Source of the DNA: an uncultured Planctomycetaceae bacterium
GTDB taxonomy: Bacteria > Planctomycetota > Planctomycetia > Planctomycetales > Planctomycetaceae
Direction: 5' to 3'
Assembly (NCBI GenBank): GCA_963815195.1
Contig: CAWFGE010000008.1
Location: 384,001-448,000 of the forward strand
Length of the DNA stretch: 64,000 nucleotides
Made by a program: the position numbers and the translations under genes. Under the pieces are notes generated by a model. The model had not been told where the DNA came from. It saw only the letters and a list, made by a program, of their open reading frames with translations, and did no database searches. This document shows positions 49,951 through 64,000 of this stretch, piece by piece. The first letter of the stretch is position 1, and each line of letters starts with the position of its first letter.

Positions 49951-51420
49951 CCACCCCTTTCAACATGTTAGATTTTTGCTATAAGTCGCTTCTACAGGGA
50001 TTGTTGTATCAAACCTTATGGAGGCGGCAAGGATGTGGCCCGACGCTGTGCTTGATCGTTTTGTGGAACAATGTCCAGCAGCAGTGATGGTTCGAGCGAC
50101 GCTCGAGAATCTTGTGTCGCCGGATCGCCTGGATGAGATTTTCGCCGACGCTTCGCAGAGACAATACGAGAAAGAATTGCTGTTTTCGCAAGTGGTGGCC
50201 CTGATGATGGGCGTGGCGACGCGGACGCACAAGTCGGTCCATGCCGGGTACTTGGCGGCCAAGGAGCAACTGGCGGTTTCGCCGGCCGCACTTTATGGCA
50301 AGTTGAACCGTCTGGAACCCGGCCTTTCGGCGACGATGATCCGGGAAACGAGCCAGGACGCGGCTCAAGTCATCGATTCCATGCCGGGAGCGTGCCGCGA
50401 ACTTTTGCCGGGCTATCACGTGCAGTATTTGGATGGGAATCATTTGGCGGCGACTGAGCATCGGCTGGCGGAATTGCGCGTCACGCGGGAAGGCCCTTTG
50501 CCCGGCCAGACCCTGGCGCTTCTGGATGCGCAGCGGGATCTGATTTCGGAACTGCTTCCGTGTGAAGACGGCCATGCCCAGGAACGTTCGCTTCTGCCGG
50601 AGCTTCTGGAATGGATCCGGGCCGAGACAGTGACAATCGCCGACCGGAACTTCTGCACGACCAAGTTTCTGTTTGGAATTGTCAAGCAGTCGGCCTACTT
50701 TGTCATTCGCCAACACGCTTCGACACTCACCTGGAAACTCGTCGGTCGCCGGAAACGCATCGGACGCATCGAAACGGGTGTTGTTTTCGAGCAGTCGGCC
50801 GAGCTGTCCCAGGGTGAAGAGACGTTGCGAGTCCGGCGGATCACCATCCAATTGGATACGCCCACAGAGAATGGTGACACTGAGATTCACATCCTGACCA
50901 ACTTGCCTGTCAAAGTCGCCAATGCGCGAAAAGTGGCTTTTCTGTATCGCAAGCGCTGGACGATTGAAGAAGCCTTCCAAACTCTGACCGAGGTGTTGCG
51001 CTGCGAAGTGGAGACGCTGGGCTACCCCAAGGCGGCGCTGTTCGCCTTCGCCACGGCGGTTTTGGCTTATAACACCTATGCCGTGGTGAAAGCGGCGCTG
51101 CGATCGGTTCACGGTGAAGAAACGATCGATGAAGAGCTGTCGGACTACCACCTGACGCAGGACGTGACTGCCACGACGGTGGGCATGAACATTGCCGTGG
51201 ACGCCGAAGCCTGGCAACACTATCAAATCATGTCTGCTGGAAAACTTGCGAGCGAGTTGGTGCGACTTGCTACACGCATCGACTTGACGCGTTACCCCAA
51301 AAAGAAACGCGGGCCGAAAAAACCACAGCCTCGAAAAAAGAGCGGCAAACGGAATCACCATATCTCCACCGCGCGAACTCTGGCCAAATCCAGGGGTAAG
51401 TGACATGTTGAAAGGGGTGG
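49951..51420 (+). mobile_element. Complete IS4-family insertion sequence
   Basis: 18-bp perfect TIR CCACCCCTTTCAACATGT; target duplication GTGCCAGCTC at 49941-49950 and 51421-51430 (12 bp if the terminal C/G is assigned to the target). Confidence 0.93.
50018..51403 (+). CDS. IS4-family DDE transposase
   Basis: LDGNHL, IADRNF, FVIR, ILTNL and YRKRWTIEEAF (YREK) motifs; intact 461 aa. Confidence 0.92.
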   Translation: MEAARMWPDAVLDRFVEQCPAAVMVRATLENLVSPDRLDEIFADASQRQYEKELLFSQVVALMMGVATRTHKSVHAGYLAAKEQLAVSPAALYGKLNRLEPGLSATMIRETSQDAAQVIDSMPGACRELLPGYHVQYLDGNHLAATEHRLAELRVTREGPLPGQTLALLDAQRDLISELLPCEDGHAQERSLLPELLEWIRAETVTIADRNFCTTKFLFGIVKQSAYFVIRQHASTLTWKLVGRRKRIGRIETGVVFEQSAELSQGEETLRVRRITIQLDTPTENGDTEIHILTNLPVKVANARKVAFLYRKRWTIEEAFQTLTEVLRCEVETLGYPKAALFAFATAVLAYNTYAVVKAALRSVHGEETIDEELSDYHLTQDVTATTVGMNIAVDAEAWQHYQIMSAGKLASELVRLATRIDLTRYPKKKRGPKKPQPRKKSGKRNHHISTARTLAKSRGK

Positions 51421-54753: not shown

Positions 54754-54880
54754 CAAAAAGCCATAACCCCAGGGTCGGCTCTCGGCGAAAGCGTCGAGAG
54801 CTTTCGGGCGATCCCATTCGACGCCGAATCGTGTGTCTCCATTCGCAAACACGTGAGACAAGCCACGGCTGGCCCACGGT
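54754..54880 (-). promoter_or_regulatory. Candidate structured leader RNA ending in a U-tract
   Basis: Closing stem AGCCGTGGCT/GGTTATGGCT (with G-U pairs) encloses three hairpins and is followed by TTTTT. Confidence 0.4.
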
Positions 54881-55135
54881 GTAAGTTGTTGCCGCAACTT
54901 GGGATAAGTTGGCCGATTTTGCAATTGTCTCGGCCCGCGCAAGAGAAAACCCCTGGGTCGCGGGGTTGCGATCCAGGGGTTCAGTGGAGCGGTCCAGACG
55001 CTCTTCAAAACTTTTGCAGAGACATTTTCGATGTCGGGTTCTCTATAGCGAAGCGAATTTCGCAGTTTGGTTCGGATAGCGGGCCGGACCCTCTTCCAAA
55101 CTGGTTCGCCATAGCAAATCGGATCCATCGAGATT

Positions 55136-56866: not shown

Positions 56867-58970
56867 CATACTTGTCCGTTTGAAGGCGATTCCAGAAGTC
56901 GCTCGATTCTGTCTTGAACTTGTCGCGGAGTTTCCCAACGAGGAGATCCAGCCCTTTCGCTTCATCGACGACAAACCGGCTGACTCCCACGCTTTTCACG
57001 GGAGCTTGGACCTCCGGGAGCACGACGATCGGGAACTCTAGTCCCTTGGCCGCATGCACCGTCATCAATCGCACGTAAGACGGTCGGAGATCCTGGCTTG
57101 GGAGTTCACCCTCCGGCTTGTCGGCATTGGCTAGAATGCTGTGCCGGAGATGAGTGGCGAAGGCTCCCACGGTCAATGCCTGCTCAGATTGCCCCAGGTT
57201 GCGGGCAATCTCGCGAAGCCGCTCCAAGGTCTGCTCCCCTTCAATGTCGTCGTGCTTCTGATGCCACGCTCGAAGTTCGAGCAGTTCATCCATGCGGCCC
57301 AAAAGTTGCGGAACCGTGTCGGTACGGATGCCACTTCGAAGCTCGCGAATATGGTGGGCGACCTCGGGAAAATCGGACTCGAAACGGTCTGTTAATTCAT
57401 GCCCTTGCTTGCGGCCGTACCAGAGAATGCTCGCGGAAACGTCGCGCAATTCGATGTGACGCAGGTAAGGGGTTTCCAGCGCCAAGGCGAGTGGGATATC
57501 GCTTGGATAGTCAAGAATCCAGCGCAGCAACCGATAGACGGCGACCACTTCCCGGCGGCGATAAAACCGTTCCCCTGAGTCGCGGCGGACGTCGATTCCC
57601 TCGGCACCAAGCTTGGCACGAAGCCCGATCAAATACTGTTCCAGCGGCTCATTCTTGCGGAACAGCAATGCAATGTCGCCGGGCTTGACGTCGCGCGACG
57701 CCGTGCCGGTGTCGATCCGGTTTTTGAGCAGGCGGCGGATGACATAGGCGGTTTGGTCAATTCCCGCCGCACGATCGCCCCTGTCACCGGCATCAAAAAA
57801 TGTCAGGGGCGGTATCTTGCTCGTGGACTGAATCGTGCCTTCATGAGGCTTGAGTGGCTGGCCAAGTTCGGGATAGCGTGCGGCCATCGAGCGGAACAGT
57901 GCGTTGTAGGCGTTCAGGAGTTGCTCGGTCGGGCGGCGCGAGATGCTCAAACGCAACAAGTCAGTTCCCTTCTCTTTCGCAATGTCCGGAAGCGAAAGCC
58001 CCGCTCCGCGAAAACCATAGATCGACTGCTTGGCGTCGCCCACAACCATCACCCGATCGAGGTAGGGCTGAAGTTGATCGACGATCCGCTTCTGCAACGC
58101 ATCCGTGTCTTGCGACTCATCAATGAACAGGTAACGGTAGCGCCGGCCCAGGTTGCGGGCCACGGCAGGGCCGTCGTTGCTCTCCAACACCTCGGCCGCG
58201 AACAGCACCAAATCCGTGGCATCGACGCGGTTCGCTTCGATCTTCTTCTGATGATACCGCTTATGCAGTTCGGCCACCGCATTGGCCAAGGCCGCGCGAT
58301 AAGGCTTCCCCACGTCCTCTGGTTGATTGTTCGTTGCCTGGGCAACACGCGCTGGATCGAGACCGCGGTTGCGCAGGGCGGCGTAGATGCTGTTGATGAG
58401 TCGTTCGAGATCGTAAAGCTTCCAATTCGGAGTGCATGTCGAGATCACAGGGCCTGGGTTGGCGGCGGTGAGGAGTTCGGTTAGGACTTCCTCCATCGCC
58501 TCATACTGCATTCCGGGGCTGTAGTCGATGTTCGCAAGGCGTGCAATCTGGGCCCCATAGCCAAACGTCTGGAGGATTTCGCGACAGAATCCATGAATGG
58601 TGCCGACATATGCGCCGGCCAGACGTTCGCGGCAAGTTTGCCAGCGGCGCTGTTCGGGCCGGGAGGAACCGGCAGCCATTTCCAGGTCTTCTAGCGTGGT
58701 TTCCAGGCGTCGGCGGAGTTCGTCGGCGGCTTTGTTCGTGAAGGTGATCAAAACGAACTGGTCCAGTGAAGCCTCCAGTCGCTGCAAAAGCAGTTCAAAA
58801 GCCGCGGCGACCGTGGTGCGGGTTTTTCCCGCGCCAGCCCCCGCATCAACAACCGTAAAAGGGTTCGCGATGACGGAATCGACGACCGCCGCCTGCTCCT
58901 CGCTCACCGTCAATCCGCCGCGCATGAGCGGAGCCAGCGCTTCCACTTGGACATCCTGAATTTGATTCAT
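56751..58970 (-). CDS. UvrD/AddA-like SF1A helicase, apparently truncated near 56866 (motif VI missing)
   Basis: AGAGAGKT, ITFTNKAA, GTIHGFC, IDESQD, VGDAKQSIYGFRGA and TVHAAKGLEF present; no YVA.TRA; the tail is out-of-frame dockerin-gene DNA. Confidence 0.85.
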   Translation of the reverse strand: MNQIQDVQVEALAPLMRGGLTVSEEQAAVVDSVIANPFTVVDAGAGAGKTRTTVAAAFELLLQRLEASLDQFVLITFTNKAADELRRRLETTLEDLEMAAGSSRPEQRRWQTCRERLAGAYVGTIHGFCREILQTFGYGAQIARLANIDYSPGMQYEAMEEVLTELLTAANPGPVISTCTPNWKLYDLERLINSIYAALRNRGLDPARVAQATNNQPEDVGKPYRAALANAVAELHKRYHQKKIEANRVDATDLVLFAAEVLESNDGPAVARNLGRRYRYLFIDESQDTDALQKRIVDQLQPYLDRVMVVGDAKQSIYGFRGAGLSLPDIAKEKGTDLLRLSISRRPTEQLLNAYNALFRSMAARYPELGQPLKPHEGTIQSTSKIPPLTFFDAGDRGDRAAGIDQTAYVIRRLLKNRIDTGTASRDVKPGDIALLFRKNEPLEQYLIGLRAKLGAEGIDVRRDSGERFYRRREVVAVYRLLRWILDYPSDIPLALALETPYLRHIELRDVSASILWYGRKQGHELTDRFESDFPEVAHHIRELRSGIRTDTVPQLLGRMDELLELRAWHQKHDDIEGEQTLERLREIARNLGQSEQALTVGAFATHLRHSILANADKPEGELPSQDLRPSYVRLMTVHAAKGLEFPIVVLPEVQAPVKSVGVSRFVVDEAKGLDLLVGKLRDKFKTESSDFWNRLQTDKYAMLVAADYQRSTYSFKLMAEPRRTLPQSTPAAQTSPVP

Positions 58971-58984
58971 AATTGTTCTCCCCA

Positions 58985-61936
58985 CTAATCCGGCACGCCC
59001 AAACACGTAGTGCGCAAAGGACAAAGTTCGCAATGGTCGCCGGGGTTTTTCGGAAAGCGGCCATCGTGCATGGCGCGAACATGTTTCGCCAGATCTAGTT
59101 GGTATTCGGCGTATGTATCCGGGTACGAGTCTTTGCCTAACGCCGCCCGGATGCACTTTCTCCACCACTCGACGGCTGGCTTTGTCGCGGTGAATACAGC
59201 GACGCCGTCGATTTCGATTTCTGAATCCGGTCCACCGCTGTCTCGATACGCGGGCATCAGCCAATGCTGGTGTGTCAAGGCGTTGTGGAGCGAGTAGGCA
59301 AATTTCCCGATTCGCAGAACGTGGACAAGTCCAGTTTCCACCGTCACGGTCTTACTGTCGATCTGCAGAACGAAGTGCAAAGTCTCCGGAGTATGCTCGA
59401 TGGCTACTCCATATTGGAAATTCGTCGGCTTTTGACCCAGCCAGTTGACGAGGCCGTCCACACTGGTCTTCAATTGTTGCCGAATGATCTTCCAGTCCAT
59501 CACCTTCATGGCGGGAAATAACGCTTCGATCTCGGGTCGAGTCTGCCTCAGCGCCTCGTAAAGGGCCTGGCGGAGTTGCTCCGCGTCGGAAAACGGCATC
59601 TTCCCGACGAGTTTCTCAAACGCGCTTTCCAGCCAAACTCCCTGCGCAAAGAATTTCAACTGGAAGGCATCCCGAAACCGCCGCGCATCCTGGTCGAACC
59701 GCTCGAATCTCGCCCGGAACGGACACAGGCGGAACAACGCCACATCGTGCAGCATATACGTGTTCGACAGACCCGGAAGAGCCAACGGTGGCAAGAGTTT
59801 GCCCGCCTCACTGGGTGGTTCTACGACATCCCCTGCCACGGGTTGTTGTCCCAAGAGTTTAGCCGCCACTACGAGATAAGGCGATGGCCCATAAGTCCGG
59901 TCTTCTCCCCGCTGCGCGTAGGACAGATGGAGTCGGTCCTTTGCTGCGCGGACAACTGTCAGGAAGAAATAGCGTTCTTTTTCCCCTTCCTCATCGGCTT
60001 TGAGTTCGAAGAACGGCCAAGTCATCGCCACCGGGCGCGGCACACGAAGGGAATCCAGACCTAAGTAGAATACAACCTGCCGCGGCGAACCGTCGAGACC
60101 TTCGGGAGTGGTGACCCAGACCTGTCCAGACACGACTTCCTCATCGTCCGGTTTGGCCTGTTGGTACTCGCGGGCCACCCCGCTCAGCGCCTCCCCGAAC
60201 TCCTCATCGTTCACGGGGATGGCGCTTGTGCTCATCACTTGTTCGAGGGCGGCCACGATCTGTTCGACCAGGTCGCGTTCATCTTTGCGCAGGTCATGCC
60301 GGTTCAAAATCGTCAATTCGTCACGGAGTTTGCGAATGTGCTCCGCGAAAGTGCGCTTCTGCCCATCGAACAATCGATCGCAAAGGTCTTTGATTTGCTT
60401 TAAGGCCCTCCGCCATAGGCCAAGTTCGCGTTCTCCCGCTTGCCCGCTGGGAAGACGCTGAGCATAGGGTTCGCTTGGCCTCGCCGGTTGCGCGAGCGCT
60501 TTGTTCCAATCTTCGAGCGTTCGGCAACGTTCGAATAGTTGAGCATGCGCTGCGTTGAAAGCATCGACGGTCCCTTGCACGTCCGCCCCCAACCAACCGG
60601 AAAGGAGCATCGTTTCAAACTGGTCCGGCCGAATCTCCAACCGCTGATCGTTGTGAATTTCATAGAGCGTGAGTGCGAAGCGCCCGAGGGGCGTCAGCAG
60701 AAGAACGCGCGGCTCGACGCGGAGGCGATGTTGCAGACCAAGCCGGCGCGCCTCTTCCTGCAGAATGGTGAGGTATTCGCTCCCGTTCCGCGACACAATC
60801 GCAATCTGCTCCGGTTTCAATTGTTCCTCGTCCAAGTAGTGTTTCACGCGCTTCAGACACTGCGCCACCTCCCGGTTGCGATGGTGATAGAACTCGAGCG
60901 TTACGCTCTCATCAGAATCATCCGTCGCGGTGGGTGGTGTTTCCGCGAAGAGACCTGTCTGGAGTCGCCATAGCAAAGTGCCTCCATTTTTCAGGTCCGC
61001 GGGAAGTTCCTCTTGCATCACGCTTGGCTGATAGGGAGCGTAGGTCCGGTCCATCACGGCGAACGCCTCGGGCTGATTCGGATCCTGCGGATGCAGAAAT
61101 ACCACGCGCGCTCCACCGCTTAAGCATGATTGCACGAAGTAACGCTGGAGCGGCGTCAGGTAAGTAAAGCCTTCCATGACCACCAAGGGAGGCGGTTTGA
61201 ATCGCTCGCGCAGGAAATTGCGGGCGGCATCTTCAAAGGTCGGAAGCCCTGAAGACTTCACGTGGGCCCGATACTCGGTTTGAAGCTGCACAAGGATATC
61301 GCCTAGCGAAGGGTTAGTGAGTTGCTCGCGGAGTTCTGGGGTAAGCCCTTCCGTCAGGTCCTCACCGCGCTGCTCAAGTTCGCTGAGGGCATCGAGCCAG
61401 GGAGTCGCGTCATGCCTCACGATCTTCGCCACGCGCTCGTCCTGTATTGCGTCTTGGATGCCGCGAAGCAGGCAGACGCGCTGGTCGAAGCGGGTTAGGA
61501 TCTTCTGCGGATGCATTAGCAATCGTAGAACCCGGTCGAACCGCAAAGCCCTCTCGGGCTTATCATCGCTAGCAGACTGATTCGGCGATTTCTTCTCTGT
61601 GTTCGGCCCGTGCTGGATACTTGGAGTCAAATCGAATCGATTTGCTTCCATCGCCGCCGTAGGTGTGATGTATAAGTACGGATCGGTCTCCGGATTCAGA
61701 CCCAATGCATTACTAACTTCCTGATTGGAAGGTGGAGAACCCCGATAGGTCAGGCGGGTCACGGGCATGGCTTTTGGAGGTGCGGACTTGGCCGCGGTTG
61801 GGGAGAGTTGTTCTGAGGGTGATTCGTCGAACCCACGCACGCGCAGTTCGAAACGGCACTCCTTGCCCCCAGGATCCATCAGCATCCACGCGCCCGCTGG
61901 CCGTGCGCCGAATACGTACTCGCGCAGGAGTTCCAT
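58985..61936 (-). CDS. AddB/RexB-like inactive-helicase protein with C-terminal 4-Cys (Fe-S staple-like) domain
   Basis: MEGFTYLTPLQ, REV...IAIVSR, VVFYLGL, ERYFFL...A..RLHLSY, CPFR and PGDHCELCPLRTTC motifs; no Walker A; AddB-like part probably begins at M57 (61768). Confidence 0.7.
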   Translation of the reverse strand: MELLREYVFGARPAGAWMLMDPGGKECRFELRVRGFDESPSEQLSPTAAKSAPPKAMPVTRLTYRGSPPSNQEVSNALGLNPETDPYLYITPTAAMEANRFDLTPSIQHGPNTEKKSPNQSASDDKPERALRFDRVLRLLMHPQKILTRFDQRVCLLRGIQDAIQDERVAKIVRHDATPWLDALSELEQRGEDLTEGLTPELREQLTNPSLGDILVQLQTEYRAHVKSSGLPTFEDAARNFLRERFKPPPLVVMEGFTYLTPLQRYFVQSCLSGGARVVFLHPQDPNQPEAFAVMDRTYAPYQPSVMQEELPADLKNGGTLLWRLQTGLFAETPPTATDDSDESVTLEFYHHRNREVAQCLKRVKHYLDEEQLKPEQIAIVSRNGSEYLTILQEEARRLGLQHRLRVEPRVLLLTPLGRFALTLYEIHNDQRLEIRPDQFETMLLSGWLGADVQGTVDAFNAAHAQLFERCRTLEDWNKALAQPARPSEPYAQRLPSGQAGERELGLWRRALKQIKDLCDRLFDGQKRTFAEHIRKLRDELTILNRHDLRKDERDLVEQIVAALEQVMSTSAIPVNDEEFGEALSGVAREYQQAKPDDEEVVSGQVWVTTPEGLDGSPRQVVFYLGLDSLRVPRPVAMTWPFFELKADEEGEKERYFFLTVVRAAKDRLHLSYAQRGEDRTYGPSPYLVVAAKLLGQQPVAGDVVEPPSEAGKLLPPLALPGLSNTYMLHDVALFRLCPFRARFERFDQDARRFRDAFQLKFFAQGVWLESAFEKLVGKMPFSDAEQLRQALYEALRQTRPEIEALFPAMKVMDWKIIRQQLKTSVDGLVNWLGQKPTNFQYGVAIEHTPETLHFVLQIDSKTVTVETGLVHVLRIGKFAYSLHNALTHQHWLMPAYRDSGGPDSEIEIDGVAVFTATKPAVEWWRKCIRAALGKDSYPDTYAEYQLDLAKHVRAMHDGRFPKNPGDHCELCPLRTTCLGVPD

Positions 61937-61989
61937 GTTATCCGATACCGCCTCGTCGCGCGGAGGGATTTCAAATAATCGTCGGCTGA

Positions 61990-63553
61990 GTGTCTGGCCG
62001 TTTTCTATGGCGCGAACTGGGTAGAGTGTGTAAAGTAGGCAATCCTGTCGTCCGCGATGTGCGGGGGCGAGTTGATTTCACTTCCAGAGGAGGGATTGCG
62101 ATGCAGGAACCCCGAGTTGCCAAAGAGGTTTATATTGAGTCAATGCGGTCGGAGCTTGAGGGCTTGTTGGGCGAAGTGATGGAGGCCGTGAATGCGGCGC
62201 CGGGCGGTCGCGTGATTGCCGACAGTGAGGAGCAAGTGCGGCAGTTGATGCACGAGTTTCGCCGCCGGGCTTACGAGCGGGCCGTGCAGATGCGAGCGGA
62301 CTCAGCCGAGTCCGCTTTTCCCCCCTCCGGAGAACGAAGCGACGGGAACACCCATGCGCAACAAAGGTCGCCAGAAGCACACCGTGATGACGGTCAACGG
62401 GCGGGTTAAGCTTCGCCGGATTCGCTGGCAACCAGCCGGCGGCGGCAGCGTGACGCCGCTGGATGAGTGGTTGGACGAAGCCTGCCAGCAGTTCACGCAA
62501 GGCGTCGTCGAATTGGCCTGCCGATTGAACCGTTGCGAAAGCAGTTTTCTGGAACTGTCCGTGACCCTGAAGCGTGCGGCGGGGCTTTCGATCGGCAAGG
62601 AAACGCTCCGGCAATTGATCGAAGCCGAAGGCCAAACGGTCTTGGAACAAACGCGTCGCAACGAACTGAGGCCCGACTGGGAGGCGTCGGATTGCCAAAC
62701 CCCTGAGGGCGAAACTCGCGTGTATTTCGGTTGTGACGGCGTGAAGGTTCCCGTGATCACGGAGACGGAAAAGAAGCAGCGGCGGGCTCAGGTCGTCGAG
62801 AAACGGAAAGAACGCAAATCCGAGGGCCGCTCTCTCAATCCGTTGGAACGATTGAAGCCGGGCGCCGACGGCCCGTACAAGGAATTTCGTCTGGTGCAGT
62901 TTTATTCGGAAGACCAGGAAAACCGCTGGATCAGCGTCAGCCGGGGCGACCATGAAGTGGTCGGGCGGGTGATGCGCCGGGACGCCTCGCGGATTCAGTT
63001 GGATCAGGCGGACGCTTCGATCGGGATTTATGACGGGGCCGTGTGGATCGATCGCCAAGCGGAGAAACAAGGCCTGCGGTTGACCGCCCGCGGACTCGAC
63101 TTCTGGCATCTTCGGGATTACGCGCAAAAGACGCGGCGGTCGCTTTACGGAGACGACGAAGCCGGCAAAAGCTGGCTGGACGAATTGATGCACACCTTCA
63201 AGCATGAAGGTTACGAAACAGCGTGGGATCAGCTCACGACCCAGCGGGCCCAACTGGAAAACGAAACGAAAAAGCAAGCCCTGGATGGACTCTTGCACTA
63301 CATGGCCGAACGCAGCCATCTGATTAAATACCCCGAGTTCCGCGCCAACGGGTGGCAAATCGGCAGCGGTCCAACCGAAGCCCAATGCCGCACGACCACC
63401 AGCCGCATCAAAGGCAAAGGCCGCCGCTGGGATCCCGACAACGCCCTGGCCGTAATGGCCTTGGAAGCCCTCCACCAAAGCCACGCCTGGGACTCTCACT
63501 GGAACCTCAATTGACCAACCAACTTAACCCCGCCAGAATTTCCGGCCACACAC
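61990..63553 (+). mobile_element. Complete ISKra4-family insertion sequence
   Basis: Imperfect TIRs GTGTCTGGCCG / CGGCCACACAC; 8-bp target duplication TCGGCTGA at 61982-61989 and 63554-63561. Confidence 0.88.
62101..63514 (+). CDS. ISKra4-family transposase in two overlapping frames (62101-62409 and 62354-63514)
   Basis: T.NGRV...R, PLDEWL, GCDG, YDGAVWI, LDFWH, IGSG.TEA and G.RW motifs; TTTTCCCCCC at the frame change. Confidence 0.85.
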
Positions 63554-64000
63554 TCGGCTGATGAGTAGCACCAACTTGCCGCGGGCGCGGCTCACCAGCA
63601 CATTCAACCGATACGGGCTGAATAGGAAGTCCGCTTCGAGTTGGGCGAACTCCGGGTCGGAAACCACATAGCCGGCGAGAATTGCATCGCGCTCCCGACC
63701 CTGCATGCGCTCCACCGTTTCCACGACGGCATTAGGCCCGAAGGGGCCGGTCACCAGTTGATCTCGCAGCGCCGCGTTCTGGGTACGGTGCGGCGTGATC
63801 ACCGCCAGCCCACGGTTCCAGAGATCAACCAGGTCCCAATCGATTTGCCCTTTGGGCGGACGAATTCGCGGAGCCAAAAGTTCAACCAGGCGCTTGAGGA
63901 CTTCGCGTTCCAACGGATTGTCGGTCCCGGAGGCTGGTCCATCGTACAACAAGACGCAAACTGGGTTCTCGGGGTCGAGCACCTGGCGCTGCCACGGTTC
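63554..64000 (-). pseudogene. DNA2/Upf1-like SF1B helicase C-terminal (AAA_12) domain, interrupted by ISKra4; 5' part outside the window
   Basis: N..E, AVITPHRTQ, VETVERMQGRERD and RLNVLVSRAR.KLVL motifs. Confidence 0.88.

Follow-up and report, generated by a model that had tools for sequence, protein, structure and literature searches.

What is encoded by the three helicase-fold units that crowd one end of a 64,000-nucleotide stretch of an uncultured Planctomycetaceae genome? The stretch, referred to below as the window, is G000:C8:384001–448000 (GenBank assembly GCA_963815195.1, contig CAWFGE010000008.1) and comes from an 8.87-Mb assembly of a genome that is 95% complete; positions above 64000 continue the window numbering, and 384000 is added to any position to give that on contig C8. 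The initial annotation, made from the window alone, described an operon of a Dna2-like helicase, an AddB-like inactive helicase and a UvrD-like motor, and considered it a candidate for an undescribed defence system. All three helicase folds were confirmed, yet only two genes encode them: a superfamily 1B (SF1B) helicase and the AddB-like protein (B) are one gene, and the UvrD-like motor (C) is the other. A third gene, a nuclease (A), belongs to the locus and lies just past the window edge. Together the three genes, all broken in this copy, form a chimera of two modules that elsewhere are accessories of Dpd islands, Dpd being a 7-deazaguanine restriction-modification system (DpdA–K). Neither module has been described, their fusion is rare, and its arrangement resembles that of RecBCD; the copy in this genome is predicted to be dead. 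An intact version would probably act like RecBCD, with two motors driving the degradation of foreign DNA from one of its ends, a reading to which we give a probability of about 0.55. A literature search, whose reach left out most subscription papers, found no description of the B–C pair or of the helicase–B fusion.

All of these genes are on the minus strand. Gene C (58970–56751; Pfam UvrD-helicase, E-value 1.4e-47) encodes an AddA-type superfamily 1A (SF1A) helicase without a nuclease domain. Fourteen bases separate it from the AddB-like half of the fusion gene (61936–58985), an open frame of 983 residues for a pseudo-helicase and a pseudo-nuclease with a predicted iron-sulfur (Fe-S) staple. 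In frame with B is a linker (61937–61989) that matches the linker of P0002, a database homologue, and beyond it lies an insertion sequence of the ISKra4 family on the plus strand (61990–63553; NCBIfam transpos_ISKra4, E 1.5e-38). The remainder of the window (64000–63554) is taken up by the end of the Dna2-like SF1B helicase, whose C-terminus was recognised at 64000–63524 (Pfam AAA_12, E 5e-14). Up to this point the initial annotation had identified each fold, and the 14-base gap, correctly. Extension of the contig past 64000 gave the start of the full helicase, at 64926, and the upstream gene A, which had been missed. Gene A (68599–64923) encodes a Cas4/Dna2-type Fe-S nuclease with a DnaQ-fold domain, and its stop overlaps the start of the helicase.

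Several lines of evidence bear on the joining of helicase and B. The ISKra4 element, 1,564 bp in length and with 8 further copies at 99% or above elsewhere in the genome, is flanked by an identical 8-bp duplication, one copy of which (61982–61989) lies in the linker. Removing the element and one copy of the duplication restores helicase and B to a single frame. The homologues P0002 (1448 residues) and P0004 (1460 residues) carry both in one uninterrupted chain, and the helicase pieces here are 65–70% identical to P0002. One contig of a soil sequencing run, X2, skips exactly 1,572 bases at this site (depth 3.4, with 53 letters on the short side). The perfect duplication with its preserved frame, the whole chains of the homologues and the contig without the insertion therefore make the first two units one gene. 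The three units are co-oriented, as first described, but the first two are not tightly adjacent separate genes – ISKra4 splits a single one. A deletion driven by the insertion sequence, joining two separate units, was also considered, and is rejected by the duplication and the preserved frame.

Each of the three genes is broken, and this copy is predicted from its sequence to be inactive, in agreement with the initial annotation. Gene A is split by an IS3 element (66855–68228), the flanking pieces matching residues 1–120 and 122–761 of the homologue P0034. The SF1B helicase carries two lesions, a frameshift near 64380 and ISKra4. Gene C is cut at about 56865, ahead of helicase motif VI, which all 14 aligned homologues have and this copy lacks; its last 35 or so codons are foreign. 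It runs, across a junction made by deletion, into the tail of an unrelated secreted-type gene on the same strand with a dockerin-like end (56860–56041; Pfam Dockerin_1, E 3e-4, and direct reading of the sequence). Assembly error as the source of the frameshift and of the cut in C is weakened by contigs of a second soil run, X1, which span both sites gap-free and leave both unchanged, although X1 may be the source sample and so is not independent. Gene A has small insertions in X1 relative to the assembly.

The AddB-like half has the fold of AddB along nearly all of its length. Its AlphaFold model (predicted local distance difference test score 83) has AddB as the best fold match (4cei_B, E 1.8e-22, 13% identity), followed by RecC and UvrD, and the structural alignment with AddB covers residues 58–980 (Z 27.2, root-mean-square deviation (rmsd) 8.6, 805 aligned). 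In a profile search of PDB sequences with B, RecC was the sole clear match (E 0.0015). Matches in the ESM Atlas were confined to unnamed or generic PDDEXK/AddB clusters. The staple cysteines C738, C969, C972 and C978 are kept among 30 aligned B proteins (one invariant, three in at least 90%) and probably bind an Fe-S cluster. The same 30 proteins lack Walker A, have a Walker B that mostly reads MEGF, and show no conserved D...D/ExK motif of a PD-(D/E)XK nuclease. The initial description of an inactive, AddB-like, Fe-S-stapled helicase is thus borne out by the open frame, the four cysteines and the fold.

What varies among B proteins is the N-terminus. In 29 proteins B stands alone in 17, is a long form with NERD in 9 and is joined to a helicase in 3; the long forms were classed by length, with Pfam NERD seen on 5 of them. 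To judge from these members, the N-terminal position can host a cutting function, NERD being a nuclease. The possibility that NERD–B replaces DpdK was rejected: the long-B loci L005 and L006 retain dpdJ and dpdD, and L006 also has dpdK. On viral contigs, the 11 pattern matches included no relative of B, and one partial gene A was found at a contig end.

Gene C belongs to a family of its own beside AddA. About 86 C-family proteins, mostly of 700–870 residues and without PF12705, head the profile search, and AddA proteins with a nuclease domain come next (among the best 120 of 931 matches). A quick tree places the 30 sampled C sequences on one side of a branch with support of 100 and parts them from AddA; rooting it against PcrA fails because of long branches. 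Scores against curated models are far below the cut-offs: 155 bits against 708 for AddA (the intact C of locus L003) and 150–166 bits against 696 for recB.

An AddB fold and an AddA-like motor encoded 14 bases apart might be taken for a divergent housekeeping AddAB or RecBCD of this lineage. That explanation is very improbable and largely refuted; the initial annotation, too, had set the locus apart from housekeeping AddAB. The distribution is patchy, B not being found in 400 genomes of the phylum or 300 of the order, and all three genes are broken here. Elsewhere this genome has its own AddA-like gene (contig C4) and AddB-like gene (contig C12, in two frames), both scoring under curated cut-offs, and canonical addA is present in all five carriers of B–C that were tested. 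The AddB-like gene (G000:C12:472825–475987) and a UvrD-like gene (C13:1019991–1020745) are each in two frames, from decay or from assembly indels.

Where are B and C found, and with what? B loci were gathered, 14 from genomes, 12 from metagenomes and 2 from plasmids; Dpd-bearing carriers include the non-pathogenic Paenibacillus lacisoli and Microvirga aerophila. C directly follows B in 24 of the 28; in three of the other four, 227 bases or fewer remain before the contig end, and the fourth is a 70-residue fragment. Flanking open reading frames of at least 160 residues were scanned with PADLOC, and Dpd matches were counted within 10 kb of B. They occur in 12 of the 14 genome loci; there are none in L003, and L007, a 3.9-kb contig from a genome with dpdA elsewhere, was left out of the scan. 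Five of eight scanned metagenome loci have Dpd matches, one of them solely by a DpdE-like helicase and a queuosine-precursor transporter (L019, L020, L027 and L028 were outside the scan). A Paenibacillus plasmid carries B–C behind dpdF...dpdJ on one strand, and the other plasmid locus has B–C by queC/queD. As background, 250 other genomes from the family of one carrier were searched; two had DpdJ and none had B, which puts the linkage of B to Dpd far above chance.

Other observations were made in these islands. In Paenibacillus relatives (L010:36–7864, L014:1945–9799, L081:3730–11498) there is a conserved block of a long DpdA (about 680 residues), an unknown gene and a short gene similar to tRNA-guanine transglycosylase/DpdA, continuing with an unknown gene and a weakly DpdH-like ATPase of 1,050 residues. 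A single island in G673 (C1:562153–585474) has two dpdJ genes, each with its own dpdK/dpdD, ahead of B–C. A Mokosh-A-like helicase (PADLOC, E 1e-106) is downstream of B–C in L017:16449–20363 and L021:6794–10759, and ShosTA and Nhi matches are near other B–C loci.

The other half of the chimera is linked to Dpd as well. The helicase pieces match the PADLOC model of DpdJ (PDLC02895) at positions 1–454 of 2112 only (E 2.3e-77 and 1.2e-36), which correspond to the extra SF1B segment that long DpdJ proteins carry. In four of four plasmid loci gene A lies near dpdA, accompanied by this helicase in a fusion with DpdJ. It also occurs in genome G467, which has a full DpdJ as well. The family of gene A has 62 matches including this copy, and the residues C18, E55, D126, D144–K146, Q158, Y162 and C244/247/253 are kept in 36–38 of 38 aligned proteins. 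A model of the intact P0034 aligns both with Cas4 (Z 12.4, rmsd 3.4, 191 aligned) and with DnaQ-type exonuclease domains (Z 13.5, rmsd 2.7, 172 aligned), while the profile of the family had no matches among PDB sequences. A single-chain Dna2-like family (L052–L069, open frames mostly of 1,100–1,500 residues) is sister to the split form; of 267 genomes from the order to which G401 belongs, 19 carry it. Both modules, then, are accessory modules of Dpd islands in other genomes, and none of the three genes is one of DpdA–K. The suggestion that the system is unrelated to any named one is not supported, and of the three-gene synteny that had been envisaged only the AddB-like/UvrD pair is widely conserved.

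Whether the fusion joins two modules in function is a separate question. They might be independent modules welded together, A and the helicase acting as a split Dna2 while B–C unwinds DNA by itself, the two motors not being coupled in bipolar movement. In favour of this, the trees imply that the helicase has switched fusion partner (DpdJ or B) two or more times, and gene A likewise, and the closest relatives of B include unfused forms. The fusion is, however, whole in two proteins at 48–56% identity, and relatives of A, helicase–B and C come from longest contigs of matching size (18,464 and 15,963), from which two further contigs with all three genes are inferred, one encoding P0002, P0034 and P0128 and the other P0004, P0053 and P0121. 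Independent modules are for these reasons a rather unlikely explanation.

A function in repair was also weighed. The machine could protect the host, resecting breaks or abasic-site nicks that Dpd makes in self DNA and handing them over to recombination – an island-borne repair aid. B–C as a nuclease-free AddAB fits unwinding more than destruction; dpdA, dpdB or dpdJ is doubled in several carriers; and dinB, imuA and an SOS peptidase adjoin one helicase–DpdJ locus. Carriers nevertheless retain canonical addA, B–C lies behind restriction genes on one strand, and gene A, with a conserved nuclease site, is found in plasmid Dpd loci without annotated dpdK or dpdD. We consider this role unlikely.

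The favoured interpretation, bipolar degradation of foreign DNA, rests on the adjacency of B and C, the linkage to Dpd, the AddB fold of B, the position of the C family beside AddA and the NERD nuclease at the N-terminus of B. Motor domains of both the SF1A and the SF1B type are present in the intact form. The steps proposed for it draw on the biochemistry of AddAB, RecBCD and Dna2. C would pair with B and pull the 3'-ended strand, and the fused SF1B motor would pull the 5'-ended strand, as RecD does. B would be a catalytically dead guide that splits the duplex, with gene A supplying the missing cutting. The substrate, to judge from the gene neighbourhood, may be invading DNA that lacks the modification and offers an entry point, either a break of the Dpd type or a phage end. 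The initial idea of a RecBCD-like bipolar machine fits better than was foreseen, the SF1B motor being fused to the AddB-like chain itself.

A number of observations weigh against this interpretation. The helicase–B fusion is known from only three sequences, and 17 of the 29 B proteins have no N-terminal enzyme. Two DpdJ-bearing genomes have no B, so B is dispensable for Dpd. This 95%-complete genome has no dpdA, and tblastn searches of it with 17 Dpd proteins gave generic RecQ/SNF2 matches only; one weak DpdB fragment (E 3.4e-10) was not recovered by tblastn. The closest named carrier, a Frigoriglobus metagenome-assembled genome (47% in B), has B–C, and no dpdA, DpdJ or gene A was found in it. 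Either the dpd genes have been lost here, perhaps through the deletion that cut C, or members of this clade do not need them.

Comparison with known systems gave no full match to any PADLOC or NCBIfam model. A close parallel is AddAB of B. subtilis (PDB 4CEI, 3U4Q), which shares the AddB fold over the whole chain, the four-cysteine staple and an AddA-type motor encoded directly downstream. Unlike AddAB, C has no nuclease domain, B lacks catalytic residues and Walker A, an SF1B motor is fused to B, the nuclease is in a third gene, and the distribution is sporadic rather than that of a housekeeping enzyme. In predicted roles the locus resembles RecBCD (outlined in PMC12904381): an SF1A motor, a dead guide subunit, an SF1B motor and one nuclease. 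Its parts, however, are not orthologs of RecB, RecC or RecD and score far under the cut-offs, the recC and recD models having no match on B or the helicase pieces; the guide keeps Fe-S cysteines and is fused to the second motor, which is of Dna2/Upf1 type, and the nuclease is a separate Cas4-like chain. Dna2/TM0106-type proteins likewise combine an Fe-S PD-(D/E)XK nuclease with an SF1B helicase after it, but here each has a gene of its own, the two genes overlap, and the motor is joined to B. As for Dpd, its islands in other genomes house both modules and long DpdJ proteins begin with this helicase, whereas searches of the present genome turned up no dpd cluster.

Gabija, Mokosh, ARMADA type II and BRIGADE also have UvrD-like or Dna2-like helicases in defence loci, but this locus has no OLD nuclease, kinase/PLD, methyltransferase or YprA gene. 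GajA of Gabija gave no match for the five locus proteins scanned (for C, among the best 25 of 57 families), and matches to GajB (115 bits) and MkoA (71 bits) were weak and generic. For Mokosh only the helicase core matched, with no kinase or PLD domain at the locus. BRIGADE type I often includes a fused DNA2-like protein (10.1101/2025.09.15.676423, text available in part); the main text, to the extent available, has 0 mentions of AddB or RecB, and its supplements may list these genes.

A tRNA-Met gene is at 69600–69674, upstream of gene A, and its 3' end with the next 170 or so bases recurs, 76% alike, at about 54820–54990 of the window and at other sites. This att-like repeat after the tRNA gene and at about 54990 suggests the ends of integrated, perhaps stacked, elements; the one genome of the same genus that was examined had no clean empty site. 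An IS4-type transposase at 50018–51403, with more than 10 copies in the genome, interrupts a short-chain dehydrogenase-like gene. The genome also has tRNA arrays at C12:573209–575422 (21 genes), C8:349717–352883 (12 genes) and C5:30370–31947 (9 genes).

DpdD–K give a restriction phenotype and their roles are called unknown, according to PMC10164549. A more speculative proposal, to which we give a low probability, is that the three-gene form is a convergent re-invention of RecBCD for defence, produced when an AddAB that had lost its two nucleases became joined to a split Dna2. As a strand passes, its AddB-fold channel might recognise 7-deazaguanine or a Chi-like word as a mark of self and so spare host DNA; it could be the missing degradative step of some Dpd systems and independent of them in this lineage. 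The present copy is rare and predicted to be dead, and the value of the finding rests with the intact relatives. In these, a nuclease-free AddAB with an N-terminal slot that is either empty or filled by a NERD nuclease or a Dna2-like motor is a modular, testable handle on the restriction step of Dpd, and the three-gene form would show that a two-motor machine of RecBCD type was assembled a second time, independently.

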